Below are positions 2,605 to 21,081 of a DNA stretch of 64,000 nt, one piece after another (within the stretch, counting starts at the first letter, position 1; each line of letters begins with the position of its first letter). Source of the DNA: Leptolyngbya sp. BL-A-14 (GTDB taxonomy: Bacteria; Cyanobacteriota; Cyanobacteriia; Leptolyngbyales; Leptolyngbyaceae); contig CP166621.1 in assembly GCA_041937185.1 (NCBI GenBank), positions 2,324,571 to 2,388,570 of the forward strand, written 5' to 3'. Made by a program: the position numbers and the translations under genes. The notes below the pieces were generated by a model. The model was not told the origin of the DNA and ran no database searches. It saw only the letters and a program-made list of their open reading frames with translations.

Positions 2605-3522
2605 TTTGGGTTTAGAGGCTGTTTGAAAAGTCGTCTAGACCGTAAAAAAGCTCACACGGTAGGCTGTCAGTAGTGAAGTCCAGCCCCGTGAGAGCGATGG
2701 TTAAATTCTACTCAAGCAACCTGACCCGCGCCCAATTTGACTTAATCCAGCCGCTGCTGCCGCCTGCCAAACCCGGTGGTCGCCCGCGCAGTACCAATCT
2801 GTGGGCAGTGCTGAACGCCATTTTTTACGTGGTCACGCAGGGCTGTAAATGGCGAGACATTCCTGGCGACTTTCCCGCGTGGCAAACGGTGTACACCTAC
2901 TTCCGCAACTGGCGCAAGGACGGCACCTGGCAAGCGCTCCATGAGCGGTTACGAGCGTGGACACGGGTCGCGACTGGACGCCCCGAAAGTCCTTCCGAGG
3001 TGATTCTCGATAGTCAAACGGTACCCACGGTGGCGATGGTGCAACAGGCCGTGGGGTTTGACTGCTTCAAAGCCACCAAAGGGCGTAAACGGCATACCGT
3101 CGTGGATACACTGGGTTTAGTGATGGTTGTATTGGTGACCGCAGCGAGTCTACCGGAACGCGAGGGCGGCAAACGGGTGCTGCAACGACTGTCTGAGCTG
3201 GGTGCGAAAGTCTGTCGCCTCTACCTCGTCTGGGTCGATGGTGGCTATAGTGGTCAACCCTTTGTGCAATGGGTGATGGATCGCTTCCGCTGGGTCATTT
3301 ACCCCGTGCTGCGCCCTGAACAGACTAAAGGCTTTGTGCTCCTGAAAAAGCGTTGGATTGTCGAACGGACGTTTGGCTGGTGGCAATGGTATCGGCGGCT
3401 CAATTGTGATTATGAACTACTTCCAGAAACCGCTGAAACCATGATTTATCTCGCGATGATCCGACTCATGGTGCGACGGTTGGCGTAATTTGTCACACCC
3501 CTCCCCCTTTTCAAACAGCCTC
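2605..3522 (+). mobile_element. IS5-family (IS427/IS1031-like) insertion sequence, about 918 bp, with 16-19 bp terminal inverted repeats and a TTA flanking direct repeat
   Basis: Left end gaggctgtttgaaaag (2605-2620); right end cttttcaaacagcctc (3507-3522) is its exact reverse complement; one transposase ORF inside; TTA on both flanks. Confidence 0.8.
2673..3488 (+). CDS. IS5-family DDE transposase
   Basis: 271 aa; typical IS5/IS4-superfamily motifs (…VDTLGL…DGGYSG…KRWIVERTFGW…). Confidence 0.85.
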   Translation: MKSSPVRAMVKFYSSNLTRAQFDLIQPLLPPAKPGGRPRSTNLWAVLNAIFYVVTQGCKWRDIPGDFPAWQTVYTYFRNWRKDGTWQALHERLRAWTRVATGRPESPSEVILDSQTVPTVAMVQQAVGFDCFKATKGRKRHTVVDTLGLVMVVLVTAASLPEREGGKRVLQRLSELGAKVCRLYLVWVDGGYSGQPFVQWVMDRFRWVIYPVLRPEQTKGFVLLKKRWIVERTFGWWQWYRRLNCDYELLPETAETMIYLAMIRLMVRRLA

Positions 3523-6878: not shown

Positions 6879-8081
6879 TTGCCATTGCTCATGCTCGATC
6901 TCAGCGGCATTCTGCTGTTTTTTACGCCCGGTTATCTTGTCTCGCTCATCATCTTCACGGCGACCTTTGCGTTGTTTAGCCTGGGGTTGAATTTGCAGTG
7001 GGGCTTTACGGGACTGATTAACTTTGGGCATATCGCCTTTATGACCGTTGGGGCCTATGCCACTGTGCTATTAAGCATGAAGGGAGTGCCGCTGGTGCTG
7101 GCGGTGTTGATTGGAGCGGGACTAGCGGCTGGGCTGGGTTTGCTAATTGGGCTGTCTACGCTGCGGTTGCGAGAAGACTATTTGGCGATCGTCACCATTG
7201 GTGTATCAGAGGTCATTCGCCTGGTGGCCCTTAACGAAGAATGGCTGACACAAGGCGCACGCGGCGTTTACAGCTATCCCCTACCCCTGGAAGCGCTCAC
7301 CAGACCGACCTTCATCAGCAAAATTGGGATGATTGGCATCTGGACGGCCATTTTTGCACTGGCTGGCTGGCAGTTGTGGCGCTGGACGTGGAAACGGCTC
7401 GATCGCTTGGGGCAAAGAGATACCCGTGAGGGCACGCAACCAGGACAAATCGGTAAGCTCTCCCTGGGCATCGCAACGGCTCTTTTGGGGCTGCTGCTGT
7501 ACTGGGCTGGCGCAGTTTCACTCTACAACTATTCCTATAAAGCAGGTCTCATGCTGGTGCTGGTCATCGTGCTGGCGTTAGTCTACTGGCGCTTAGAAGC
7601 ACTGGTGCGATCGCCGTGGGGTCGGGTGCTCAAAGCCATTCGTGAAGATGAGGAAATCGCGAAAGCATTGGGCAAGAATGTGTTCTGGTACAAGCTGCAA
7701 TCGCTCATGCTGGGCGGGGCGATCGCTGGCATTGCGGGAGCCTTTTATGCGTGGCAGCTCAGCTTCATTAATCCGGATGGCTTTATTCCGCTGATTACGT
7801 TTCAGGCATGGACGATCGTGGTTCTCGGTGGGGCTGGCAACAATGCGGGAACGCTGCTGGGAGCCACCATCTTTTGGGCCTACAACTCAGTCACGCGGTT
7901 TCTGCTGCCTGCGATCGCCCCCGCGCTACACGCGATCGTCCCTGCCATTCCGCCTCAGCTTGATGAAGGCAGAGCTGGAGCCTTTCGGATTATGATTATT
8001 GGCTTGCTGTTGATTGTGATGATGATGGCGCGACCGCAAGGCATTTTAGGCAAGAAGGAGGAACTCTCTCTTGGTCGATGA
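6879..8081 (+). CDS. branched-chain/neutral amino-acid ABC transporter permease (LivM/NatC-like)
   Basis: 400 aa multi-TM permease with a LivM-like central loop; overlaps the following LivG-like ATPase. Confidence 0.85.
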   Translation: MPLLMLDLSGILLFFTPGYLVSLIIFTATFALFSLGLNLQWGFTGLINFGHIAFMTVGAYATVLLSMKGVPLVLAVLIGAGLAAGLGLLIGLSTLRLREDYLAIVTIGVSEVIRLVALNEEWLTQGARGVYSYPLPLEALTRPTFISKIGMIGIWTAIFALAGWQLWRWTWKRLDRLGQRDTREGTQPGQIGKLSLGIATALLGLLLYWAGAVSLYNYSYKAGLMLVLVIVLALVYWRLEALVRSPWGRVLKAIREDEEIAKALGKNVFWYKLQSLMLGGAIAGIAGAFYAWQLSFINPDGFIPLITFQAWTIVVLGGAGNNAGTLLGATIFWAYNSVTRFLLPAIAPALHAIVPAIPPQLDEGRAGAFRIMIIGLLLIVMMMARPQGILGKKEELSLGR

Positions 8082-10587: not shown

Positions 10588-13452
10588 TTATCTCTTTACT
10601 CCATCGTAATTAGTGCCTCGTGAAGCCTGCGATTGAGTCGAACACTCTAGGGGCAATTGAACGTTGTTGTACAGTTTCGTTCCACTAGTTACCTTATTAA
10701 AGTAAATCTTAGGGTTCTTTCCTTTGAGTCCAAAATTCAAACTGATTGTCCCCCCAGGAGCTAAGTGCCGTGGCTTTAAGAACGTAGAGGGTTGGTTCGA
10801 TTTCCTCGGAGGCTGTGGTTTTCCGGACCTGCTCGAGGGCCGTAGTTTTTGGAGCATGCTTAAAGGGTTGCCGAGAACCCAGCTCCGTTGCGAGGAGGAC
10901 ACATTGTTCTCCCCGTCTTTCCTCAAGGTAGAAGATGAGGTTGGAGCTAGTTGCTTCGAAGAAGACTGATCTTTTGGTGAAGACGAATCACGCATCGGAA
11001 CACGGCAAATATCGTTCTGATAGATTCGATTAATCATCATCAATTTGCTCAAATCATAATAGTGTTTTGAACCATTAAATAGAGTAAAAAACTGCTCGTC
11101 TTTTGGTCTTTTCTTAAGGTCAAGCGTTAGATTTGTAATGTCTTCTCCAGTTGGAAGATCTTTTAAGGTAATGATGTAGCCGGATCTTTTCGTGTTTTTA
11201 GTGTCATCATTCTTAGTATCGTCTATCGCCAGTAGAATATTTTCGAACGTTTGATCTTGGTTGGCCACAAAGTCGATACCCAAAGACTTAATCAGACTTC
11301 GATCTGATTGATTACCTTTATTTTGATCAACCTCAATCTGTTCATCTTTATCAAAATGAATCTTCAGCCCCTTAGATGGCACACTGCCATCCTTTGGTTG
11401 AATACCTTCTACACTTGCTTTTGGTCGAATATCTTCTACACTTAACAAAAAGCCTGAGCCAGTCAAAAAGAAGGTAGAAGTATTTTTTTCTGTAGGGTTC
11501 GAAGATTTGCTAGTGATAGCATTGATGACAATCTTTTCATGCAAAGTGGTTTGCTCTTTATTGCTAGAGGTCTCGTTATTGCCAGCTATCTCATCAAGAG
11601 AAAAGTCCTTAACTAAATCATCTTGAGGGATAGAAGCAGTCGTTTTTGATTCTATATACTCCCGCAGTTCCTCAGTCCTATCTCTAAAAGCTTTTTTAAC
11701 TTTATTAGCTGTCTTTTGGTCTAGTTTTTTGAATTTTACGTCTTTTTCCAGCGCAGTCTGATATTCCAGCACAGTTGGGTATTCGTCTAGAGAAGTCTTC
11801 TTAAGGTCATTTCTTGCAGTTACTATCATCTCCGCAATCTTACCAGATATTTCTTCAAAGTCGGGGATATGATCGTTTGAGTCGTGATATTTGGTACTAT
11901 CTTTTAGTTGTGGAATCGACGGAGTCTTTTTTTGTAAATCTAAAGCATCTGTAATTTGTTTTTTATAATTCTCCTCAACCTGTTTTATATCTTCTCTAGC
12001 TTGTGATATGCCTGGTCTTGATGGAATTCTCATTACTATTTCAGCAATCTCTTTGTTAGTCTCGCCGAGCTTTTTTAAATCGATTCCAGTTTTAGGGACG
12101 CTAGTTTCAGGGTCTTTTATGCTATTTTGTCTATCGACTAATGCCTGAACTAACGAATCAAAAAGTCCCCCTATCCTTGAGTTATCACTATCGACTTTCT
12201 CTAGGTTACTTTCACGTGGCTCTGACGAAATTTGAAGTTGTCCTTCGGTTATATTGAATTCAACAGTATCTGAGTCTTGGCGCAAGGGGAATTTGAAGTA
12301 TTGCCCTTTAGGAAGGTCACGAAGAGAGAGTGGAAGCAGATCAATTTTGTCACCCTTTATACCACTATAAGTAATAGAGGAATCAGGAATACCTCCAGGT
12401 GTGTATGTCCATTCATAGTCGCTGGGTTCTGAAGTTGGAGAAGATGAAGGTGTTGCGGCAGTTGGAGAAGATGAAGGTGTTGCGGCAGTTGGAGACGATG
12501 AGGGTGTTGCTAGAGGTTGAGACTGTTTAGGCGTAGAAGATTTTGGCGATGCTGCAGTTGGAGAAGATGAAGGTGTTGCTGGAGGTTGGGATTGTTTAAG
12601 CGTAAACGTCACATAGCCTACTGTTTTAGGAGAATTGCTATCGTACACAGCTACCTGGTATGAACGATTCCACCACATTGGGCCCTTAATCGCTGTTGGC
12701 ACGAGAGTATGTCCGTCGGTAAGGCGACCTGTGTCATCAACTTTATAAACGCCCATCGTGTAGTACTCTTTGCGCTTTTGCATCGATTCAATGAGCAGTC
12801 CCAAAATCTCACCTGGCGACTGCTTGCGGATGGCTTTTGCCTCCTCTGATAGTTCATCCAGGCTTTGCAACGCAGAGTAGTAGGCAATATAGTTTTGTAT
12901 CGCACGGTTATTGTCAATTTCAACCGCCTTGGTTGCTCCCGGTTGAAAGGCTGCCGGAATCGATCTTCCCTTAAATGGTTGCCCTAAGAAGAGGCGTAAA
13001 CTGGCGATCGCCATCCCCTCGCATGCGCCCTCCTGGGTAATACTGTTTAGCTGCTTTGTTCGCCATGCGAGGGCGCTAGCGGTTAGAACACAAGTGTGGG
13101 GATTATCCACAATGAAGGTTCCCGGAAAGCAAACCGCGTCGGGCCCAAACATTTGAATCATATCCTCTGCTGTCAGAGAACCGTCTTCGAACTCTAGTTG
13201 CACCTCTTTTTTTTGATTTTGCTCCGTTGCGTTTTGAATCGCTTTCACTACATCGCCATTGTGAAACTTGAAGCCGTTTACGTTAGGATCAAAACCAATG
13301 TTGTATGTCGGATGATGCCACCATAAAACACTAAAAAACACCAAAAGACTGAGCAACACAGCACCAATCATTTGTTTGTGGGGAAGCAACCAAGTGGCAA
13401 CTAAATGTTTGCGACGATTCATAGCACCAACTAGCTGTTTGTAAGGATTCAT
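10588..13452 (-). CDS. large hypothetical membrane-anchored protein: N-terminal TM, Cys-containing domain, Pro/Thr/Ser-rich linker, and a Lys/Asp/Glu-rich C-terminal region encoded by AT-rich DNA
   Basis: 954-aa uninterrupted ORF; PT-repeat linker (…ATPSSSPTAATPSSSPTAATPSSSPT…); GC drops sharply from about 12.4 kb to the stop codon. Confidence 0.7.
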   Translation of the reverse strand: MNPYKQLVGAMNRRKHLVATWLLPHKQMIGAVLLSLLVFFSVLWWHHPTYNIGFDPNVNGFKFHNGDVVKAIQNATEQNQKKEVQLEFEDGSLTAEDMIQMFGPDAVCFPGTFIVDNPHTCVLTASALAWRTKQLNSITQEGACEGMAIASLRLFLGQPFKGRSIPAAFQPGATKAVEIDNNRAIQNYIAYYSALQSLDELSEEAKAIRKQSPGEILGLLIESMQKRKEYYTMGVYKVDDTGRLTDGHTLVPTAIKGPMWWNRSYQVAVYDSNSPKTVGYVTFTLKQSQPPATPSSSPTAASPKSSTPKQSQPLATPSSSPTAATPSSSPTAATPSSSPTSEPSDYEWTYTPGGIPDSSITYSGIKGDKIDLLPLSLRDLPKGQYFKFPLRQDSDTVEFNITEGQLQISSEPRESNLEKVDSDNSRIGGLFDSLVQALVDRQNSIKDPETSVPKTGIDLKKLGETNKEIAEIVMRIPSRPGISQAREDIKQVEENYKKQITDALDLQKKTPSIPQLKDSTKYHDSNDHIPDFEEISGKIAEMIVTARNDLKKTSLDEYPTVLEYQTALEKDVKFKKLDQKTANKVKKAFRDRTEELREYIESKTTASIPQDDLVKDFSLDEIAGNNETSSNKEQTTLHEKIVINAITSKSSNPTEKNTSTFFLTGSGFLLSVEDIRPKASVEGIQPKDGSVPSKGLKIHFDKDEQIEVDQNKGNQSDRSLIKSLGIDFVANQDQTFENILLAIDDTKNDDTKNTKRSGYIITLKDLPTGEDITNLTLDLKKRPKDEQFFTLFNGSKHYYDLSKLMMINRIYQNDICRVPMRDSSSPKDQSSSKQLAPTSSSTLRKDGENNVSSSQRSWVLGNPLSMLQKLRPSSRSGKPQPPRKSNQPSTFLKPRHLAPGGTISLNFGLKGKNPKIYFNKVTSGTKLYNNVQLPLECSTQSQASRGTNYDGVKR

Positions 13453-13540: not shown

Positions 13541-16414
13541 TTATTTCTTGTTGACTATCGTTTTGATGTCATTGCAGAACTTACCCTCTGCTGAGTGCGG
13601 GTTGGCGACGAAATAGTCTTGTAGCCAATGGCAGCTACGCGCAAGCAAGAGATCAGGGTCTAGTTCCCATAGGATGAGGGTTTTATCATTACTAGCTGAG
13701 ACGATCGCTTCACCATTGGGGCTAAAGCCGATACTCTGCACGACGTCGCGATGCCCTTTGTATGTGCTGAGGAGTTGTCCATTCTGGCGACTCCAAAAGC
13801 GTACTGTACCGTCTACCCCTGCAGAGGCAAGGATTTGACCATCGGGGCTAAAACTGACATCAAGCACCTGTCCGAAATGTCCTCTCAAGATCTGTAACTC
13901 TCGCCCATCAGAGACCTTCCAGAGTTTGATTGTGCTGTCCTCACTACTAGAAGCAAGGGTTTGACCATCCGGGCTAAAACTGAGGTTCCAAATCTCACCC
14001 CTGTGCCCTTTAAAGGTGCGAATCTCGTGTCCATTCAACTGCCACAGCTTGATTGTGGTGTCATCGCTGGCTGAAGCCAACATTGTGCCATCGGGGCTAA
14101 AGCGAACACCCTCAACCTGGGCAGTGTGTCCTTTAAAGGTGCTCAGTACCTGTCCTTCTAAGTTCCAAAGTTTGACCGTTTTATCTTCCCCCCCGGAGGC
14201 GATCTTCTTTCCGTCTGGACTAAAGCTCACGCTCCAAACACCTCCCTTGTGCCCCTTCAAGGTTTTTAATACCTGGCCATCACTACTCCAAAGTTTAATG
14301 GTGCCATCGCCACTGGCAGATGCCATCGTTTGACTATTTGGGCTAAAGCTCACAGAGACAACCCGTTCTTGGTGCCCCTTCAGGGTCTTCAGAGCTTGAC
14401 CGCGAGCGTTCCACAGTTTAAGCGTCTTATCCTTACTGGCTGAAGCAATCAGCCTACTATCAGGGCTAAAGCTGACGCTGCGAACTTCGTCGCTATGCCC
14501 TTTAAGCATTTGGAGCGCTTGCTGATGCAAATTCCAAACTTGCACATTGCCATCGGTGCCAACCGATGTCAACGTTCGTCCATCGGGGCTAAAACTGGCA
14601 CTCTTCGCCGCATTGCTATGACCTCTAAAGGTTCCCAGCATCTTTCCATCCAGCGCTTGTAATCGAATGGTGCCGTCATCTCCTGTGGCAGCAATCACTT
14701 TGCTGTCGGGACTAAAATTCACCCCCTCAATTGGAGCCATGAATCCTATCAGCGTTCTCAACGGGACTCCATTTACGCTCCAAAGCTTGACGGTTTTATC
14801 CTTGCTGCCAGAAGCAATCCATTTGCCATCGGGGCTAAAGCAGACGGTGTAAACAGCATCACTGTGAGCCGGGATTATTTTCAAGACCTTTCCGTTTAAC
14901 CGCCATAGACGGATGGTTCTGTCATCACTGCCAGAAACTAGCGTTTGCCCGTTGGGGCTAAAGCTGACACTTTCAACTAAATCACGATGCCCTTTCAAAG
15001 TGCGGATTGGCTGCCCAAAGGACTGAGGTGATCCCGTACGCTCGACTGCCCAGAGACGGATGGTGTGATCGGCACTGGCCGATGCAAGGGTTTTACCGTT
15101 GGGGCTAAAACTCACGCTATATACTGTATCGGTATGCCCCTTCAGCGTTTTCAGCAAGGTGCCATCCGCCCTCCAGAGTTTGATGGTATTGTCCTTGCTT
15201 CCCGAGGCCAGCATCTGTCCGTTGGGGCTGAAGCTCACACTGCGAATTTCATCGCGATGCCCTGGTAGCGATCGTAGTTTTTGACCCTTACGGTTCCATA
15301 GTTCGATCGTTTGATCGCCAGCTACTGCCAGCGTTTGCCCATCGGGGCTCAAGCTAACGCTATACAAACGAGCGTTTTGCCCTGTGAAGGAGTTCTGTTG
15401 ATGTACGCCATACACCACCTGCTGTAGGGCACTAATGGCTCGCATGCGGGTGTCTGGGGTGATCTTGTCTTCCCATTGTTTGAGCTGTTGCCCCATGCGG
15501 ATGCTACCCAACAGCGCTTCGATGTCTAACCCTGACTTCAGGTTGCTTTCCACAATTAAGCTTTGGGCAGTAATCGTTTCATTGGCAGACTGTTTTTCGG
15601 CAATGGCCTTCGCTTCAATGGCTTCGTGTCGTTGTTGCAACGCCATGATGGTTGAGCCAATGGCCATTAGCAAGCCAGCCGAAACACAGACCAGTGCAGT
15701 TCTCTGTAGCCTATTTCTGGCTTTTTGCCGTGCCGTTTCAGCTTGACGGCTGGCACTGATGTAAGCGCCATGCAGTTTCGTCGGTTCCGGTTGTTTAGCC
15801 GTCTGTTGAAACATCCATTGCGCGGCTTCCTCCAGGTCGTCACCCTGCAGCAAACAGCTCTCATTGCGCTGCTTCTTCTCCCACTCGATCGCCCGCATCA
15901 GTAATCGAGCATGCTTACGGGCATGATCCAGGTCGGTTTCGATCGCCTTCAACAGCTTTTGGAATGCTTGATTGAAATCGTCCGTCTCCCGAAAAAACAG
16001 CCAGTTATGACGGCTAATCGCAGGATGGATATCTGCCGCACTAAACCCTTCTCGCCAGACCAGCGGCACCAACCGCTTCTGGTGGGCAACAGCATAATCC
16101 ACCTCCTGACGGCACACCTCCGAGGCGATCGAATCAGGACTGATCACAAAGACAAAGGTACTGGCGGCTTCAATGCCTGCTTTAATGGCTTCCCACCAAT
16201 CCTCAGTGGGTTGAATATCGTCCCAATCAATCCACGGATCATGGTTGTGTTTGCGAAACGTCGCATCCAGGATACGCACGAAGTCTATGTCTCTACGACA
16301 GTAAGAGATAAAGATTTCATTGACTTGTTCGCCTACTCTTTGATCGTCTACGCCAGTGGCAGATGCTGTAGCTCGATCGTTGTTAGTCACAGAGGAACCA
16401 TCTGTAACCGTCAT
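13541..16414 (-). CDS. TIR domain-TM helix-WD40 repeat (about 14 repeats) protein
   Basis: N-terminal TIR (FISYCRRD…FVISPDSIASEVCRQEV, conserved Glu present); hydrophobic segment RTALVCVSAGLLMAIGSTIMAL; many GH…WD units; ATG at 16414 preceded by GAGGGG. Confidence 0.85.
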   Translation of the reverse strand: MTVTDGSSVTNNDRATASATGVDDQRVGEQVNEIFISYCRRDIDFVRILDATFRKHNHDPWIDWDDIQPTEDWWEAIKAGIEAASTFVFVISPDSIASEVCRQEVDYAVAHQKRLVPLVWREGFSAADIHPAISRHNWLFFRETDDFNQAFQKLLKAIETDLDHARKHARLLMRAIEWEKKQRNESCLLQGDDLEEAAQWMFQQTAKQPEPTKLHGAYISASRQAETARQKARNRLQRTALVCVSAGLLMAIGSTIMALQQRHEAIEAKAIAEKQSANETITAQSLIVESNLKSGLDIEALLGSIRMGQQLKQWEDKITPDTRMRAISALQQVVYGVHQQNSFTGQNARLYSVSLSPDGQTLAVAGDQTIELWNRKGQKLRSLPGHRDEIRSVSFSPNGQMLASGSKDNTIKLWRADGTLLKTLKGHTDTVYSVSFSPNGKTLASASADHTIRLWAVERTGSPQSFGQPIRTLKGHRDLVESVSFSPNGQTLVSGSDDRTIRLWRLNGKVLKIIPAHSDAVYTVCFSPDGKWIASGSKDKTVKLWSVNGVPLRTLIGFMAPIEGVNFSPDSKVIAATGDDGTIRLQALDGKMLGTFRGHSNAAKSASFSPDGRTLTSVGTDGNVQVWNLHQQALQMLKGHSDEVRSVSFSPDSRLIASASKDKTLKLWNARGQALKTLKGHQERVVSVSFSPNSQTMASASGDGTIKLWSSDGQVLKTLKGHKGGVWSVSFSPDGKKIASGGEDKTVKLWNLEGQVLSTFKGHTAQVEGVRFSPDGTMLASASDDTTIKLWQLNGHEIRTFKGHRGEIWNLSFSPDGQTLASSSEDSTIKLWKVSDGRELQILRGHFGQVLDVSFSPDGQILASAGVDGTVRFWSRQNGQLLSTYKGHRDVVQSIGFSPNGEAIVSASNDKTLILWELDPDLLLARSCHWLQDYFVANPHSAEGKFCNDIKTIVNKK

Positions 16415-16678
16415 AGCGTCACCCCTCAAGCAGCACAAACGTGATTTCAGCGGATTCTAGTCGAGTACACCCTGATCTTGTAGGGAAGGGTGTCGAGTAT
16501 CAAGTATGGTGAATGCAAATGAAATTAACAGAGTGTTTTGGGACGGTGCTAATGTTCGACGTTGGGATCGTGGTTTTAACTGTCACACAAACTTACCTAA
16601 GCAATTTACTTTACTTAGAATATATCTGACAAGTTAAAATTGTTATCCGAATCCTTGAGCTTTACGGGCTTGACACTC

Positions 16679-17077
16679 TTACCGAACGCGATTGGAGCGC
16701 ACCATCAGGTTAAGCAGATGTTCGGTGACATCCGGTAGATGCTTGCACAAGCCTGTATGCACTCGTGATGTTTGAATGATGGTGCTACGGGGTGCAACCA
16801 GCCAATGGAAGCGTTCTCGCATGGGTAGCTGACCGATCGCACCAGCCGCTTTACCACCAGCACACACCACTGGAATCACAGCCAGATAGTCTCGAATGAG
16901 GTCTAGATCCAGCGTGGCGTCGAGTGCTAGCAAGCGTGCCTCATCAAGCTCAATGCGAGCCTCAAGAAAGCGGTTGCTGGCACAGGAAACAATCACGCCC
17001 ACATTGATAAACTCTTCACGCTCAACCTTGGGGACGACGCGAATGATGGCGTAGTCATAGGTGAAGTGATCGGGCAC
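16679..17077 (-). CDS. DUF3037-family protein
   Basis: 132 aa; start overlaps the upstream kinase-like gene by 23 nt. Confidence 0.65.
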   Translation of the reverse strand: MPDHFTYDYAIIRVVPKVEREEFINVGVIVSCASNRFLEARIELDEARLLALDATLDLDLIRDYLAVIPVVCAGGKAAGAIGQLPMRERFHWLVAPRSTIIQTSRVHTGLCKHLPDVTEHLLNLMVRSNRVR

Positions 17078-17837
17078 GCAGGGCTTCCTCCAGAAACGCG
17101 TGGGGTGTTTCTAATCGTCTCACCAAATATTCAATGAAAGCGTCCCGGTATTGGTTTGCGTCAGCAAAGGGAGTGCTGTCTAGCAGCCAGCTATCAGGAA
17201 TCAGTTGCACAATCTGGTCGATGAGAGTGGGCGTCAGTTTTGCGGTGAGCGTTTCATCGGCTGCTGGCAGTTCAGTTGCAAAGCGAAGCAACACGTGATC
17301 TTTAATGGCCGCAAAAGCTACCTGGCTACGATCGCGGTAGTTTTGCCAGGTGTGATGGAAGTACAGCGCGGCTCCGTGGTCGATCAGCCACAGGTTTCGG
17401 TGCCAGACCAGCATATTGGCATTGCGGGGAGTGCGATCGATGTTGGTGACGTAGGCATCAAACCAGACGATCGCAGACGCAAGATGCGCTTCAGCCTGCC
17501 CTGCGATCGGGTCAAAGGTCACTGAGCCAGGGAGGTAATCCAACGCAAGGTTCAGTCCCGCACTGGCCCGGATCAGGTCTTGAATTTCGGGGTCTGGTTC
17601 CGTACGAGCCAGGTCAGGGTCGAGCAGCACAAAAACAATTTCGGGAACGGGCAACCCGACTGCACGCGCAATTTCTCCGGCGACCAGTTCGGCAATCAGT
17701 GCCTTGGCTCCCTGTCCCGCGCCCCGAAACTTCAGCACATACATCCCATCGTCGTCAGCTTCAATAATGGCAGGCAGGGAGCCACCTTCACGCAGTGGGG
17801 TTACATATCTCGTCGCTACGACTGTTCGCAAGTTCAT
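17055..17837 (-). CDS. HipA-like / PI3-4-kinase-like atypical kinase (HipA_2-type, partner of DUF3037)
   Basis: 260 aa; catalytic-loop-like IDRTPRNANML and metal-binding-like LIDHG. Confidence 0.65.
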   Translation of the reverse strand: MNLRTVVATRYVTPLREGGSLPAIIEADDDGMYVLKFRGAGQGAKALIAELVAGEIARAVGLPVPEIVFVLLDPDLARTEPDPEIQDLIRASAGLNLALDYLPGSVTFDPIAGQAEAHLASAIVWFDAYVTNIDRTPRNANMLVWHRNLWLIDHGAALYFHHTWQNYRDRSQVAFAAIKDHVLLRFATELPAADETLTAKLTPTLIDQIVQLIPDSWLLDSTPFADANQYRDAFIEYLVRRLETPHAFLEEALRARSLHL

Positions 17838-17927
17838 TGAGTAGAGCGGCTCCGTAGCTTTGTTTAAATGAAGAGCGTTGCTTGATCAAAGGCTAGCGCT
17901 TCTTATGCGTACTGTTGGAGTGATTGG

Positions 17928-18701
17928 TTAGTAATCACTGAGATTGCCGTGGCGTTTGGTTTGGCGTTCTGCCCAACGGAAGAGCAGTAGACCGATCGCA
18001 AAATACACGCCTCCATTCACCACAGCCACACCCATCTGAGAGAGATCCAACGGGTGCTGTCGCGCCATCACATCTCGCAATAGTCCTGCACCGGGACTCA
18101 TCGGCAAAAGGTTGCCTAAAAGGCGCATACGGCCTGTCCATTCTTCGGTGGGTACACTCAGCAGAAACAGGAGTGCAAACTGAAAGATCCCCAGCACCTG
18201 TTGAATCCGCTTGACGATGAGTGCTAAAGACCCGATCGCAAACGACAGCCCATAAGCGCCCAGCAGCACTGTCAGCAGCGGGAACCAGAGGCTGAGGGGA
18301 AAGGCAAGCCAGCGGCCGGTCAACGCCATGATGATCACGACGATCGCGGCAATCAACCCCGATTGCAAGAGTAAATCAGCAACTGCCCGCAAAAGAAACA
18401 CCTGCGAGGCACTGAAAGGCGAGATGAAGAGCTGTTCTAGTGTCCCTGTCTGAGCTTCGCGCTGTAGCGTGCCAGAAATGTTCGCCATGATGAACAGCAC
18501 CAGCGTCCAAAGCACGTAACCTACGATGATGGCATCCAATCGACTGCCAAATTGCAACCCCGGCCCCGCAATATAGTTGGCGCTAAGAAAGAGACCGTAA
18601 AACACTGAAGTTGAAATGACAATGCCGCCGATCGACTCAAAGAGGTAACGCTTTAATTGAATGCTTGCTCGCGTTAATTCTGCAAAAAAAAGTTCAAGCA
18701 T
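17928..18701 (-). CDS. ABC-2 type transporter permease
   Basis: 257-aa six-TM protein; overlaps the upstream ABC ATPase. Confidence 0.75.
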   Translation of the reverse strand: MLELFFAELTRASIQLKRYLFESIGGIVISTSVFYGLFLSANYIAGPGLQFGSRLDAIIVGYVLWTLVLFIMANISGTLQREAQTGTLEQLFISPFSASQVFLLRAVADLLLQSGLIAAIVVIIMALTGRWLAFPLSLWFPLLTVLLGAYGLSFAIGSLALIVKRIQQVLGIFQFALLFLLSVPTEEWTGRMRLLGNLLPMSPGAGLLRDVMARQHPLDLSQMGVAVVNGGVYFAIGLLLFRWAERQTKRHGNLSDY

Positions 18702-19650
18702 GGAGGTCTCCGATCGCCTGGTTTGGGGAAGCAGTTGTTTGGGTCAACTTCAAGAAAATGTCCGTTAGGGTGGCTCGCTCCGTTTCAAGCCGCGCGATCG
18801 GCAGAGGGTCCAAAATCGCCAGTGCCGGATAGAGCAACGTCGGATCGGAAATGTGGATCGTTGCACCTTCAACCAGCACACCGAGATTGCTCAACTTCAT
18901 GCGGCGATCGTCTGGCAACTCCGGCAGTTCTACCCGGTACACCGCTCTAGAAAACTGCTGAATCAATGCTTCGGTCGCTTGCTCTGTGACAATGCTCCCC
19001 TGATTGATAATGGCAACGCGATCCGATAGTTCCTCCGCAATATCAAGCTGGTGCGTCGTCAAGAGAATTGCTCGTCCTTCGCTGGCGATCTCACGGACTA
19101 AGCGTTTAACGGTTTGCGTCGCTTCTACATCTAAACCCAGAGTGGGCTCATCTAAGAGCAGCAGTGGTGGTTCGTGGATGAGTGCCACTGCGATCGCCAC
19201 TTTTTGCTGCATCCCTCGCGACAGCTTTTGCACTCTCGTTGTACTTTTGTGGCTTAGCTCAAAGCGATCGAGCAAAACCCGCGATCGCTGTCGTGCGACC
19301 CGTTGCGACAAACCTCGCAGAACGCCGAAGTACTCCAGATTTTCCGCTGGAGTGAGTCGCCAGTAAAGATTACGGCTCCCTTCTAAAACAGCCCCGACCG
19401 ATCGTAGAGCCTGGGCATCTCGGTGTGGGTCGCGTCCGGCAATGCTGACAGTCCCGCGATCGGGCAACACCAAGCCCGCAATCATTTTAATGGTCGTCGT
19501 TTTACCCGCCCCATTGGGTCCCAGGAATGCAAGCACCTGGTTTGCATCAATTTGAAGCGATACATCCTGCACAGCCTGCGTAGTCTTTCCCTGAGCGCGG
19601 TAGGACTTATGCAAATGCCGGACTTCAAGCAAAGACATCACCCACCCCAA
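18694..19650 (-). CDS. ABC transporter ATP-binding protein (ABC-2/DrrA-like)
   Basis: Walker A GPNGAGKTT, signature LSRGMQQK, Walker B LLLLDEPT. Confidence 0.85.
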   Translation of the reverse strand: MGWVMSLLEVRHLHKSYRAQGKTTQAVQDVSLQIDANQVLAFLGPNGAGKTTTIKMIAGLVLPDRGTVSIAGRDPHRDAQALRSVGAVLEGSRNLYWRLTPAENLEYFGVLRGLSQRVARQRSRVLLDRFELSHKSTTRVQKLSRGMQQKVAIAVALIHEPPLLLLDEPTLGLDVEATQTVKRLVREIASEGRAILLTTHQLDIAEELSDRVAIINQGSIVTEQATEALIQQFSRAVYRVELPELPDDRRMKLSNLGVLVEGATIHISDPTLLYPALAILDPLPIARLETERATLTDIFLKLTQTTASPNQAIGDLHA

Positions 19651-19833: not shown

Positions 19834-21081
19834 CTAAAGACGACTGAGATCCTGCGGCTGCCCGCATTGCTTACAGTGGGGCAAATGTTTGTACGTCAGT
19901 TCGTGACAGTTCTGACATTCCATATACTGGTCATAGCCACAGTGCGGGCAGTAGTGGTCGTGGTGTCGAATGCTTTTGGCACAGCGAAGGCAGCGCGATC
20001 GCTGGACTCGGACAGAGGCTTGCCCCTTGGGGTTAAAAACAAAGCGCTGAAAGAACTTAATCATGCCAAACCCAATGACGGGAATCAGCAAGATGTAGAG
20101 ATAGCTAACCAGAAACAGGAGACCACTAAAAAGAGCCGTAAGGACATCGACAAGCAGTCGAAAGAGTACGCCAACCTGAAGAAACTCAAAGACCTTGAAG
20201 ACCAGCGGAATCAGAAAGATGACCAGTAAATGCCAGCTAATCAGCGCAACAAGTCCATACCCCTTGCGTTGAGCAAATTGGTGCACCACAAAAGCGATGA
20301 AGAGGAGTGGCAAGAGGAAAAGGGCTTGAAACGCAAATTGAATGCTGGGATACCAAAAAGAAGCTTGTTGATAGCCTTTTTCAACCGTATTAAATTGATC
20401 ATTATTGTTCAGAAGCGCCAGCCAGGCGGCTACTTCTGGTCGTGGAAAAAGCTCTTTTTTCAGTGTGGAAACGTCGCTTTCCAGTGTAGAAATCAGGCGT
20501 TTGTTTTGTTCTAATGTTTGTTTTGCTTTCTCCGCCCCAACCGTATTGATGGATTGATCACGTGGCTGACCCGCAATCTTTTCGAGCAGCGTAGAGTCGT
20601 ATTGAGTGCGGATGGTTTGATTGGATTGCTCAAGCTGATCAATCTTTGTTTCTTTTTGCCTGATGGTCGTTAAAAGCTGTTGATTAGCAGGAGTGATCAA
20701 GGCATCTTTAGACGTGGCATAAGCTAAACACGCTTCAGAAACCTTGCTCAGATGCCCTTGCTCAACCCGTTGATAAGACTGTCGAAACCCAGATCCGGTA
20801 AAACGATCGCCCGACACAGCCATACGAACAGATTCGTAGTCTTTAGCATTCGTTGTCTGGGTGCGATAGCTTTGCCATTCGGCATAACAAGGGTACGTCT
20901 GGGATGGACCAAGATGCCACTGACCAATGTCATCTAGCCCTATAAAAACATTAACCAGGATAAAAATATCAATCAGAATCAGAACAATCAGACTGACTTT
21001 ATTCAGTGGTTCATTCTTAATCGTTCCCGATTTACTAAAGAAGCGATTTAAGAGTCGTCGAAACCTGGAAAACATTATCAT
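19834..21081 (-). CDS. hypothetical multi-TM protein with a central coiled-coil region and a C-terminal double zinc-ribbon
   Basis: 415 aa; C-terminal CLRC…CPHCGYDQYMECQNCHE…CKQCG; somewhat AT-rich. Confidence 0.6.
   Translation of the reverse strand: MIMFSRFRRLLNRFFSKSGTIKNEPLNKVSLIVLILIDIFILVNVFIGLDDIGQWHLGPSQTYPCYAEWQSYRTQTTNAKDYESVRMAVSGDRFTGSGFRQSYQRVEQGHLSKVSEACLAYATSKDALITPANQQLLTTIRQKETKIDQLEQSNQTIRTQYDSTLLEKIAGQPRDQSINTVGAEKAKQTLEQNKRLISTLESDVSTLKKELFPRPEVAAWLALLNNNDQFNTVEKGYQQASFWYPSIQFAFQALFLLPLLFIAFVVHQFAQRKGYGLVALISWHLLVIFLIPLVFKVFEFLQVGVLFRLLVDVLTALFSGLLFLVSYLYILLIPVIGFGMIKFFQRFVFNPKGQASVRVQRSRCLRCAKSIRHHDHYCPHCGYDQYMECQNCHELTYKHLPHCKQCGQPQDLSRL

Follow-up and report, generated by a model that had tools for sequence, protein, structure and literature searches.

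Introduction

The protein domain DUF3037 is "strongly associated" with HipA-like kinases, and a HipA-like/DUF3037 pair encoded beside Retron-Sda1 protects Escherichia coli from phage Bas51 independently of the retron; deletion of the kinase of this pair abolishes defence, and deletion of its DUF3037 protein is toxic (PMC12548924). The system DS-6 has been validated and renamed HipAD with citation of Brenes & Laub 2025, and it comprises a HipA-family kinase (DS-6A) and a protein combining DUF3037 with DUF1829 (DS-6B); a catalytic mutation in DS-6A eliminates defence, and according to AlphaFold3 predictions A and B form a complex and B contacts DNA (PMC13092281). In Escherichia phage PhiR5_1 (PV340545) the corresponding genes encode HipA of 249 aa and HipD of 275 aa, overlap by 4 nt and are located between cI and kil. 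Here we analyze a HipA-like kinase gene and an overlapping DUF3037 gene from a 64,000-nt stretch of DNA of the cyanobacterium Leptolyngbya sp. BL-A-14 (CP166621.1, positions 2,324,571-2,388,570; hereafter, the window), in which the region under study occupies positions 16679-19650. An initial annotation, made from the sequence alone, had considered the combination of these two families a functionally uncharacterised one, which is out of date, as it corresponds to PADLOC PDC-M66 / DS-6 / HipAD and has been tested in forms with a long partner (PMC12548924, PMC13092281). Judged by its sequence, the window pair appears to be a distinct variant of the HipAD superfamily, characterized by a short partner, a chromosomal location and high conservation.

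Results

A Translationally Coupled Kinase-DUF3037 Operon

The source record, Leptolyngbya sp. BL-A-14, was matched at 100% identity, and four co-directional minus-strand open reading frames (ORFs) span the region under study (Table 1). A search with Pfam hidden Markov models (HMMs) upheld the earlier reading of two of them as a 260-aa/132-aa pair with HipA-like and DUF3037 domains. Thus, the kinase matches HipA_2 (PF20613; E 7e-23, 81.5 bits vs. a cut-off of 27) over residues 14-245 (profile positions 7-234 of 240), and its partner matches DUF3037 (PF11236; E 5e-44, 149.8 bits vs. a cut-off of 22.6) over residues 9-126 (profile positions 1-118 of 118), both matches being full-length and above the gathering score. 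The kinase additionally matches PADLOC PDC-M66A (E 3e-26) and phrog_3162 (E 3e-27), and the partner matches PDC-M66B (E 6e-8) over the N-terminal part only (model positions 3-62 of 281) and, by profile matching, aligns through residues 6-129 with positions 4-132 of 279 of phrog_5137. Since more than 8000 clusters (at 90% identity) match each of the two proteins, these genes are not chance ORFs; the best 120 kinase clusters all share at least 75% identity, with a length of about 260 aa, and the best 120 partner clusters are all at least 70% identical.

A scan of one genome per species yielded close relatives of the kinase in at least 594 species, and neighbourhoods were surveyed in the best 80 loci (kinase identity 62-78%), which represent Cyanobacteria, Acidobacteriota, Gamma- and Betaproteobacteria, Chloroflexota, Bacteroidota, Ignavibacteria, Nitrospirota, Gemmatimonadota and several other groups. 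A DUF3037 gene directly follows the kinase gene in 79 of these 80 loci, the single exception being a contig edge, which bears out the earlier description of the pairing as recurrent. Divergence of the kinase and that of its partner are correlated (Spearman 0.57). All-vs-all clustering of the ORFs in the 80 loci revealed no conserved neighbour beyond the pair (the largest other cluster, a generic family, is present in 15 loci), and the flanking genes show no preference for either strand. The kinase gene and its DUF3037 partner make up an autonomous two-gene operon, coupled in translation.

The overlap of 23 nt between the two genes (17055-17077), which are read in differing frames, was verified, and the translational coupling proposed from it is well supported by conservation of the overlap, the GTG start and an internal Shine-Dalgarno (SD) motif across phyla. 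The SD motif of the window pair, GGAGGA, is located within the kinase codons for Leu-Glu-Glu (L-E-E). In a survey of 76 homologous loci with a GC content from 33 to 72%, where SD motifs were scored by regular expression, 52 loci share the 23-nt overlap and a further 20 have a shorter one (8-20 nt), DUF3037 begins with GTG in 57, and an SD-like motif (mostly GGAGG) is embedded in the conserved Glu-Glu-Ala codons at the end of the kinase gene in all but one (75/76). Even AT-rich Bacteroidota retain this internal motif, implying that synonymous positions are under selection. With this recurrent layout, DUF3037 is predicted to be translated from a GTG codon within the terminal part of the kinase gene, downstream of the conserved ribosome-binding site that the kinase gene contains, which points to synthesis of DUF3037 in a fixed, roughly stoichiometric ratio to the kinase. 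Scanning for promoters and terminators around the operon gave counts no higher than in shuffled sequence, with none between the permease and kinase genes.

Table 1. Coordinates of the kinase-DUF3037 operon, its sequence motifs and the adjacent exporter genes (positions within the window; aa, amino acids).
Feature	Position	Strand	Description
HipA_2-family kinase gene	17837..17055	-	260 aa; core kinase only, without HipA N-subdomain-1; putative Ser/Thr specificity
DUF3037 partner gene	17077..16679	-	132 aa; DUF3037 domain alone
Coupling junction	17055..17091	-	GGAGGA 17091-17086, 9-nt spacer, GTG start 17077-17075, 23-nt overlap, kinase TGA 17057-17055
Putative Gly-rich nucleotide-binding loop R16-E17-G18-G19-S20	codons 17778..17792	-	alignment to phage HipA NEGST...YVLK; role by analogy with HipA
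K36, putative ATP-binding lysine	17730-17732	-	analogy with HipA
Catalytic loop IDRTPRNANML; D134 putative catalytic base, N139 putative metal ligand	17409..17441	-	D-x4-N motif
LIDHG motif; D153 putative Mg-binding aspartate	17373..17387	-	I152, D153, H154, G155 conserved
ABC ATPase gene	19650..18694	-	318 aa; Pfam ABC_tran E 1e-31; DrrA-like
ABC-2 permease gene (membrane protein)	18701..17928	-	257 aa; ABC2_membrane_3 30.8 bits, just below the 31.6 cut-off (weaker call)

Active-Site Residues and Structural Models

The two motifs quoted in the initial annotation, IDRTPRNANML and LIDHG, were located at kinase residues 133-143 and 151-155, respectively. The kinase begins where the core kinase of HipA begins, with the Gly-rich loop from residue 16, and approximately 140 N-terminal residues of HipA are absent. 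No variation at R16-S20 and K36 was seen among 24 close homologues, and conservation of these residues in 76 cross-phylum homologues is at least 95% (with S20 invariant); both sets of homologues are invariant at D134, R135, R138, N139, N141 and L143 of the catalytic loop, as well as at I152, D153, H154 and G155. Aligned by eye, the catalytic loop equates to D309-x-H-x-K-N314 of E. coli HipA. The D-x4-N loop, the Mg-binding aspartate and the Gly-rich loop with its lysine, which mark HipA_2 catalysis, are all present in invariant or at least 95% conserved form, their roles being assigned by analogy, and the kinase retains all residues expected for catalysis. We infer from the tested long-form relatives that it acts as a Ser/Thr protein kinase.

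An AlphaFold2 model of the kinase, built from a shallow alignment, is poor (predicted local distance difference test, pLDDT, of 64) and was used only for a coarse Foldseek comparison. The only meaningful match of this low-confidence model in PDB is Helicobacter pylori CtkA (3AKK; Foldseek probability 1.0, E 1e-3, template modelling score 0.45, 15% identity), which we take to be a HipA-like kinase without the HipA N-domain. The model of DUF3037 is confident (pLDDT 92.7), with three strands followed by four helices, a hairpin and a final helix. A sequence-profile search of PDB sequences returned no solved relative for either protein, and alignment of the kinase profile with E. coli HipA (hhalign) was not significant; no direct relation of the kinase by sequence profile, be it to this HipA or to a protein of solved structure, was upheld. 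The conserved polar residues of DUF3037 include R13, R20, E22, N25, D57, R89, W92, S98, Q102, S104 and H107, the two serines being near-invariant. Fusions were sought in ten DUF3037 representatives of odd length, and DUF3037 was the sole domain in each of them.

Two matters of nomenclature concern these proteins. Many public records of the kinase (e.g., P0003, P0006, P0031, P0081) are named "aminotransferase class I and II"; no aminotransferase domain was detected, and this name is a legacy misannotation that is still propagating. The name DUF3037 is also borne by InterPro entry IPR022542, which is presumably unrelated to bacterial PF11236. It is this entry, representing eukaryotic ARM-repeat proteins, to which the name refers in a paper on Arabidopsis RST1 (PMC6711988), and the shared name may mislead text searches.

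Conservation, Composition and Distribution

Mean identity of the kinase amounts to 0.70-0.83 within phyla vs. 0.64-0.71 between phyla, and the tree is star-like. At four-fold degenerate sites, identity of the window kinase gene to cross-phylum and other cyanobacterial homologues is 0.24-0.33, the expectation from composition being 0.23-0.27; a control comparison of two Microcoleus species gave 0.90. The GC content at third codon positions (GC3) of kinase genes varies between 0.25 and 0.92, in close correlation with the GC content of the host flanks (r = 0.94). Because four-fold sites are nearly random and GC3 is host-adapted, recent transfer is not the source of the cross-phylum identity, and recent horizontal transfer as its sole cause was rejected. 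Among 76 sequences, 114 of the 260 kinase positions are at least 90% conserved; these are concentrated in the N-lobe and catalytic core, and the last 80 residues are variable, a pattern that looks like a frozen core combined with quickly saturating variable sites. At short range, in the closely related genome L086, the kinase and partner are 85% and 81% identical to those of the window vs. 74-89% for the flanking genes, i.e., the pair evolves like its flanks.

Some horizontal transfer is nevertheless likely in view of the patchy deep distribution and of a compositional mismatch in Microcoleus, the clearest in the set: in the Microcoleus loci L003-L007 (kinase at 7001-7780), the gene has a GC content of 0.53 and a GC3 of 0.54-0.57 vs. 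a flank GC of 0.43-0.46, which hints at a comparatively recent acquisition in this genus. Large 90%-identity clusters with Microcoleus names hold 124, 201 and 295 member sequences, and the pair is therefore common in sequenced Microcoleus. The named cyanobacterial records returned by our searches belong to filamentous Leptolyngbya- and Microcoleus-type lineages.

The residence in mobile elements, prophages or defence islands that would be expected of HipAD was not observed for the window clade in IMG/VR, GenBank phages, the scans of neighbouring genes or the window context. Matches among GenBank phages are confined to two records, both long-form. Plasmid matches are below 60% identity, most of them are on very large replicons, and 12 of 14 records are typed as non-mobilizable. 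A decayed second copy of the pair is present on plasmid p1 of Leptolyngbya boryana IU 594 (L088, 2965-3637), where only the last 88 aa of the kinase remain, next to an IS110 transposase; the gene overlap of 23 nt persists, and DUF3037 is intact, being 72% identical to that of the window.

Genomic Context and the Adjacent Exporter

The initial annotation had further connected the pair with the ATP-binding cassette (ABC) exporter genes that precede it. The co-directional position of the kinase gene after the ABC ATPase and ABC-2 permease genes was verified (with the weaker Pfam call for the permease); these two ORFs overlap by 8 nt, and 90 nt separate the permease from the kinase. The linkage, however, is not a conserved one: a tblastn search with the ATPase and permease of the window detected an adjacent ABC-2 permease or related ATPase in none of the 80 homologous loci. 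The ATPase-permease-kinase-DUF3037 arrangement recurs only in the close relative L086 (kinase 85% identical), where the whole region is syntenic, including a redoxin gene and a gene for a 413-aa membrane protein, and it is absent from a Stenomitos locus (89% identical), whose neighbours are unrelated. Since the arrangement is shared only with syntenic L086 and the Stenomitos neighbours are unrelated, the adjacency reflects inherited local synteny rather than a functional linkage, and the exporter was rejected as a part of the kinase/DUF3037 unit. Likewise rejected was a defence-island context for the clade, most of the 140 immediate neighbours scanned with Pfam and PADLOC models in more than 70 genomes belonging to housekeeping families (including major facilitator superfamily transporters, luciferase-like monooxygenases, oxidoreductases and peptide deformylase).

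The remaining window context is that of ordinary chromosomal DNA, as it includes the dnaA locus (686-2086); a DDE transposase of the IS4/5 family is encoded at 2673-3488, and a response-regulator phosphatase, amino-acid ABC transporter genes and one TIR-WD40 gene are also present. Upstream of the ATPase and permease genes, positions 19834-21081 (minus strand) encode a predicted membrane protein of 415 aa carrying a double zinc-ribbon at the C-terminus; its syntenic counterpart in L086 has 413 aa and 74% identity, and this gene and the exporter (17928-19650) may form a three-gene unit of their own. Directly downstream of the pair, positions 13541-16438 (minus strand) encode a 965-aa protein in which a TIR-like N-terminal domain (PADLOC ThsB and TIR matches, E 1e-6 to 4e-9) is combined with some 14 WD40 repeats; the gene is absent from this position in L086 and is probably a lineage-specific insertion outside the module. 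Further downstream, a 954-aa ORF (10588-13452, minus strand) without a Pfam match contains tandem repeats rich in Pro, Ser, Thr and Ala (PATPSSSPTAA...) and is located in a stretch of low GC content (0.42-0.46 vs. about 0.51 for the whole window); it may represent foreign DNA or a surface protein.

Discussion

Drawing on the tested relatives, we regard a kinase-inhibitor module of the HipAD toxin-antitoxin type as the likeliest identity of the window pair, at about even odds. In such a module, the free Ser/Thr kinase would arrest growth, as its long-form relatives suggest, and would phosphorylate a conserved essential protein, e.g., an aminoacyl-tRNA synthetase, by analogy with other toxins of the HipA family; GltX and TrpS are targets of HipA-family kinases. 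DUF3037 would bind the kinase directly and hold it inactive, and this complex would come apart upon a trigger, e.g., phage infection or a block of translation. Since the C-terminal, probably DNA-binding, half of HipD is missing, the short partner would be expected to neutralise the kinase and not to repress its own promoter. The toxicity, binding, target and trigger proposed for the short form are thus projected from distant relatives and from HipA-family precedent. Loss of the kinase with retention of DUF3037, as seen in the decayed L. boryana copy, fits the direction of decay that a toxin-antitoxin pair tolerates, as circumstantial evidence.

A number of observations weigh against this assignment. 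The tests of toxicity and of kinase-dependent defence concern long-form relatives that are distant from the window pair: the window kinase is 27% identical to HipA of PhiR5_1 over 154 aa (E 1e-13) with its C-terminal third unaligned, the similarity of the partner to HipD by BLASTP is limited to 32% over 34 N-terminal residues, and the partner has 132 aa vs. 275-281 aa, without the C-terminal domain of about 150 aa (DUF1829, predicted to bind DNA). With a GTG start tied to upstream translation, the antitoxin excess on which classical toxin-antitoxin systems depend would not obviously arise. Among the 2.9 million viral contigs of IMG/VR, no relative was retrieved with the invariant peptides TPLREGGS and GLNLALDY, the immediate neighbours are mostly housekeeping genes with few and scattered PADLOC matches, the pair in L086 is syntenic and diverges like its flanks, and protein identity of 62-78% is maintained across some ten phyla although synonymous sites are saturated. 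Some of these features speak for a different possibility, to which we assign a clearly lower, tentative probability, namely that of a conserved cellular signalling pair, where the kinase would regulate a host process (e.g., translation or stress adaptation) and DUF3037 would be its obligatory regulatory subunit, an adaptor or a phospho-acceptor substrate, in the manner of partner-switching pairs. On the same tentative footing, phage-borne HipAD would have branched off later and gained a DNA-binding domain, and DUF3037 would represent a previously unseen fold. Such a role would agree with the protein-level conservation despite synonymous saturation (with the 114 positions conserved across about ten phyla), with the long residence indicated by host-tracking GC3, with the chromosomal location among housekeeping genes and the absence from viral contigs, with the abundance of the pair in sequenced Microcoleus and with the many conserved polar residues of DUF3037, including its two near-invariant serines; coupled expression of the 1:1 type would suit a stable complex. 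It is opposed by the only experiments available for the superfamily, which show toxicity and phage defence (PMC12548924, PMC13092281), by a patchy deep distribution, represented in named cyanobacterial records by filamentous Leptolyngbya- and Microcoleus-type lineages, by variable genomic contexts, by the signature of horizontal transfer in Microcoleus (GC3 0.55 vs. flank GC 0.44), by the decayed L. boryana copy that keeps the partner only and by the fact that, at short range, the pair evolves no slower than its flanks.

The remaining two explanations appear less probable still. DUF3037 might be a structural counterpart of HipS (i.e., of HipA N-subdomain-1) and inhibit the core kinase as HipS inhibits HipT. 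The window kinase indeed lacks the roughly 140 N-terminal residues of HipA and starts its Gly-rich loop at residue 16, there is precedent for a HipS-like antitoxin, which may or may not carry a DNA-binding domain, encoded after a short core kinase, as in hipJS and hipIN (PMC8262856), and the DUF3037 model opens with a three-stranded sheet followed by helices; given that hhalign of the DUF3037 profile against HipA residues 1-146 returned a probability of 0.2% and that the same profile finds nothing among PDB sequences, we regard this as unlikely. The idea put forward in the initial annotation, a toxin-like kinase or small-molecule phosphotransferase working with the ABC-2 exporter, e.g., by phosphorylating an exported or imported compound, could appeal to co-directional genes with a 90-nt gap and no predicted terminator between permease and kinase, and to the same arrangement in one related genome (L086). 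It is undercut by the unconserved exporter linkage (0/80 other genomes), the Stenomitos locus without an exporter and the descent of the L086 arrangement through whole-region synteny, and no transporter takes part in the validated relatives, which function as two-gene systems (PMC12548924, PMC13092281); all this makes it very improbable indeed.

The combination to which the window pair belongs has newly entered the anti-phage catalogue, and only via long-partner, prophage-borne examples. Consisting of a core kinase and a bare DUF3037, the window form is a minimal version and a very widespread one, carried by genomes of at least 594 species and represented by thousands of clusters from metagenomes. 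Its unusually frozen sequence and frozen coupling junction offer a clean system for studying the effect of DUF3037, a domain without a solved structural relative, on the kinase and for approaching the kinase target. The pair also allows one to ask whether defence toxin-antitoxin systems and conserved chromosomal kinase modules are functionally the same; if the role in cellular signalling were true, it would represent an ancient, very slowly evolving kinase-regulator pair with a conserved housekeeping or stress target. With respect to annotation, a tempting but false link to an exporter has been removed, and the name "aminotransferase class I and II" has been flagged as wrong.

Among the described systems, the window pair is closest to HipAD, with which it shares a HipA_2 (PF20613) core kinase followed, in the same order and on the same strand, by an overlapping DUF3037 gene, as well as matches to the same two PHROG families and PADLOC PDC-M66 families as HipA and HipD of PhiR5_1, and common catalytic motifs. 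Besides the differences in length and sequence considered above, it departs from the phage system in its overlap (23 nt with a GTG start vs. 4 nt in PhiR5_1), in being chromosomal rather than prophage-borne and absent from viral contigs, and in a much higher conservation across phyla. The Pfam scores of the two types are opposed, HipA_2 giving 258 bits for phage HipA vs. 81.5 for the window kinase, and DUF3037 giving 84.6 for HipD vs. 149.8 for the window partner. The HipA_2 model is thus biased towards the phage type, whereas the DUF3037 model favours the short type, and the window kinase represents an outlying HipA_2 clade.

Comparison with other HipA-type systems reveals a similar combination of shared and distinct features. 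The window kinase probably shares with HipA of canonical HipBA (E. coli K-12, PF07804) the kinase fold, a Gly-rich loop with serine, the D-x4-N loop and the Mg aspartate; PF20613 is called "HipA-like kinase" in Pfam and has been united with PF07804 in a kinase-family database (bioRxiv 10.64898/2026.09.18.752743). Unlike in HipBA, the N-terminal domains of HipA are missing (a Pfam scan of the window kinase gave no HipA_N, Couple_hipA or HipA_C match), the partner gene is downstream, i.e., in reversed order, and the upstream gene is that of the ABC-2 permease rather than a helix-turn-helix HipB. CtkA (3AKK) provides the best solved-structure match for the kinase, through a model that is itself of low confidence (pLDDT 64), and differs from it in sequence (identity 15%) and in having no DUF3037 partner. 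A core kinase devoid of N-subdomain-1 also characterizes HipBST and the hipJS and hipIN systems (Gerdes et al., 2021, PMC8262856), in which, as in the window pair, it is accompanied by a small protein (about 100-130 aa); this HipS-like partner is short in hipJS, whereas in hipIN it is extended by fusion to a DNA-binding domain. In our comparisons, DUF3037 showed no significant sequence or fold similarity to HipS or HipA N-subdomain-1, and HipB is lacking from the window pair. Nevertheless, the relationship between the short DUF3037 partner of the window pair and the long HipD of the phage-borne systems parallels that between the short partner of hipJS and the DNA-binding fusion of hipIN.

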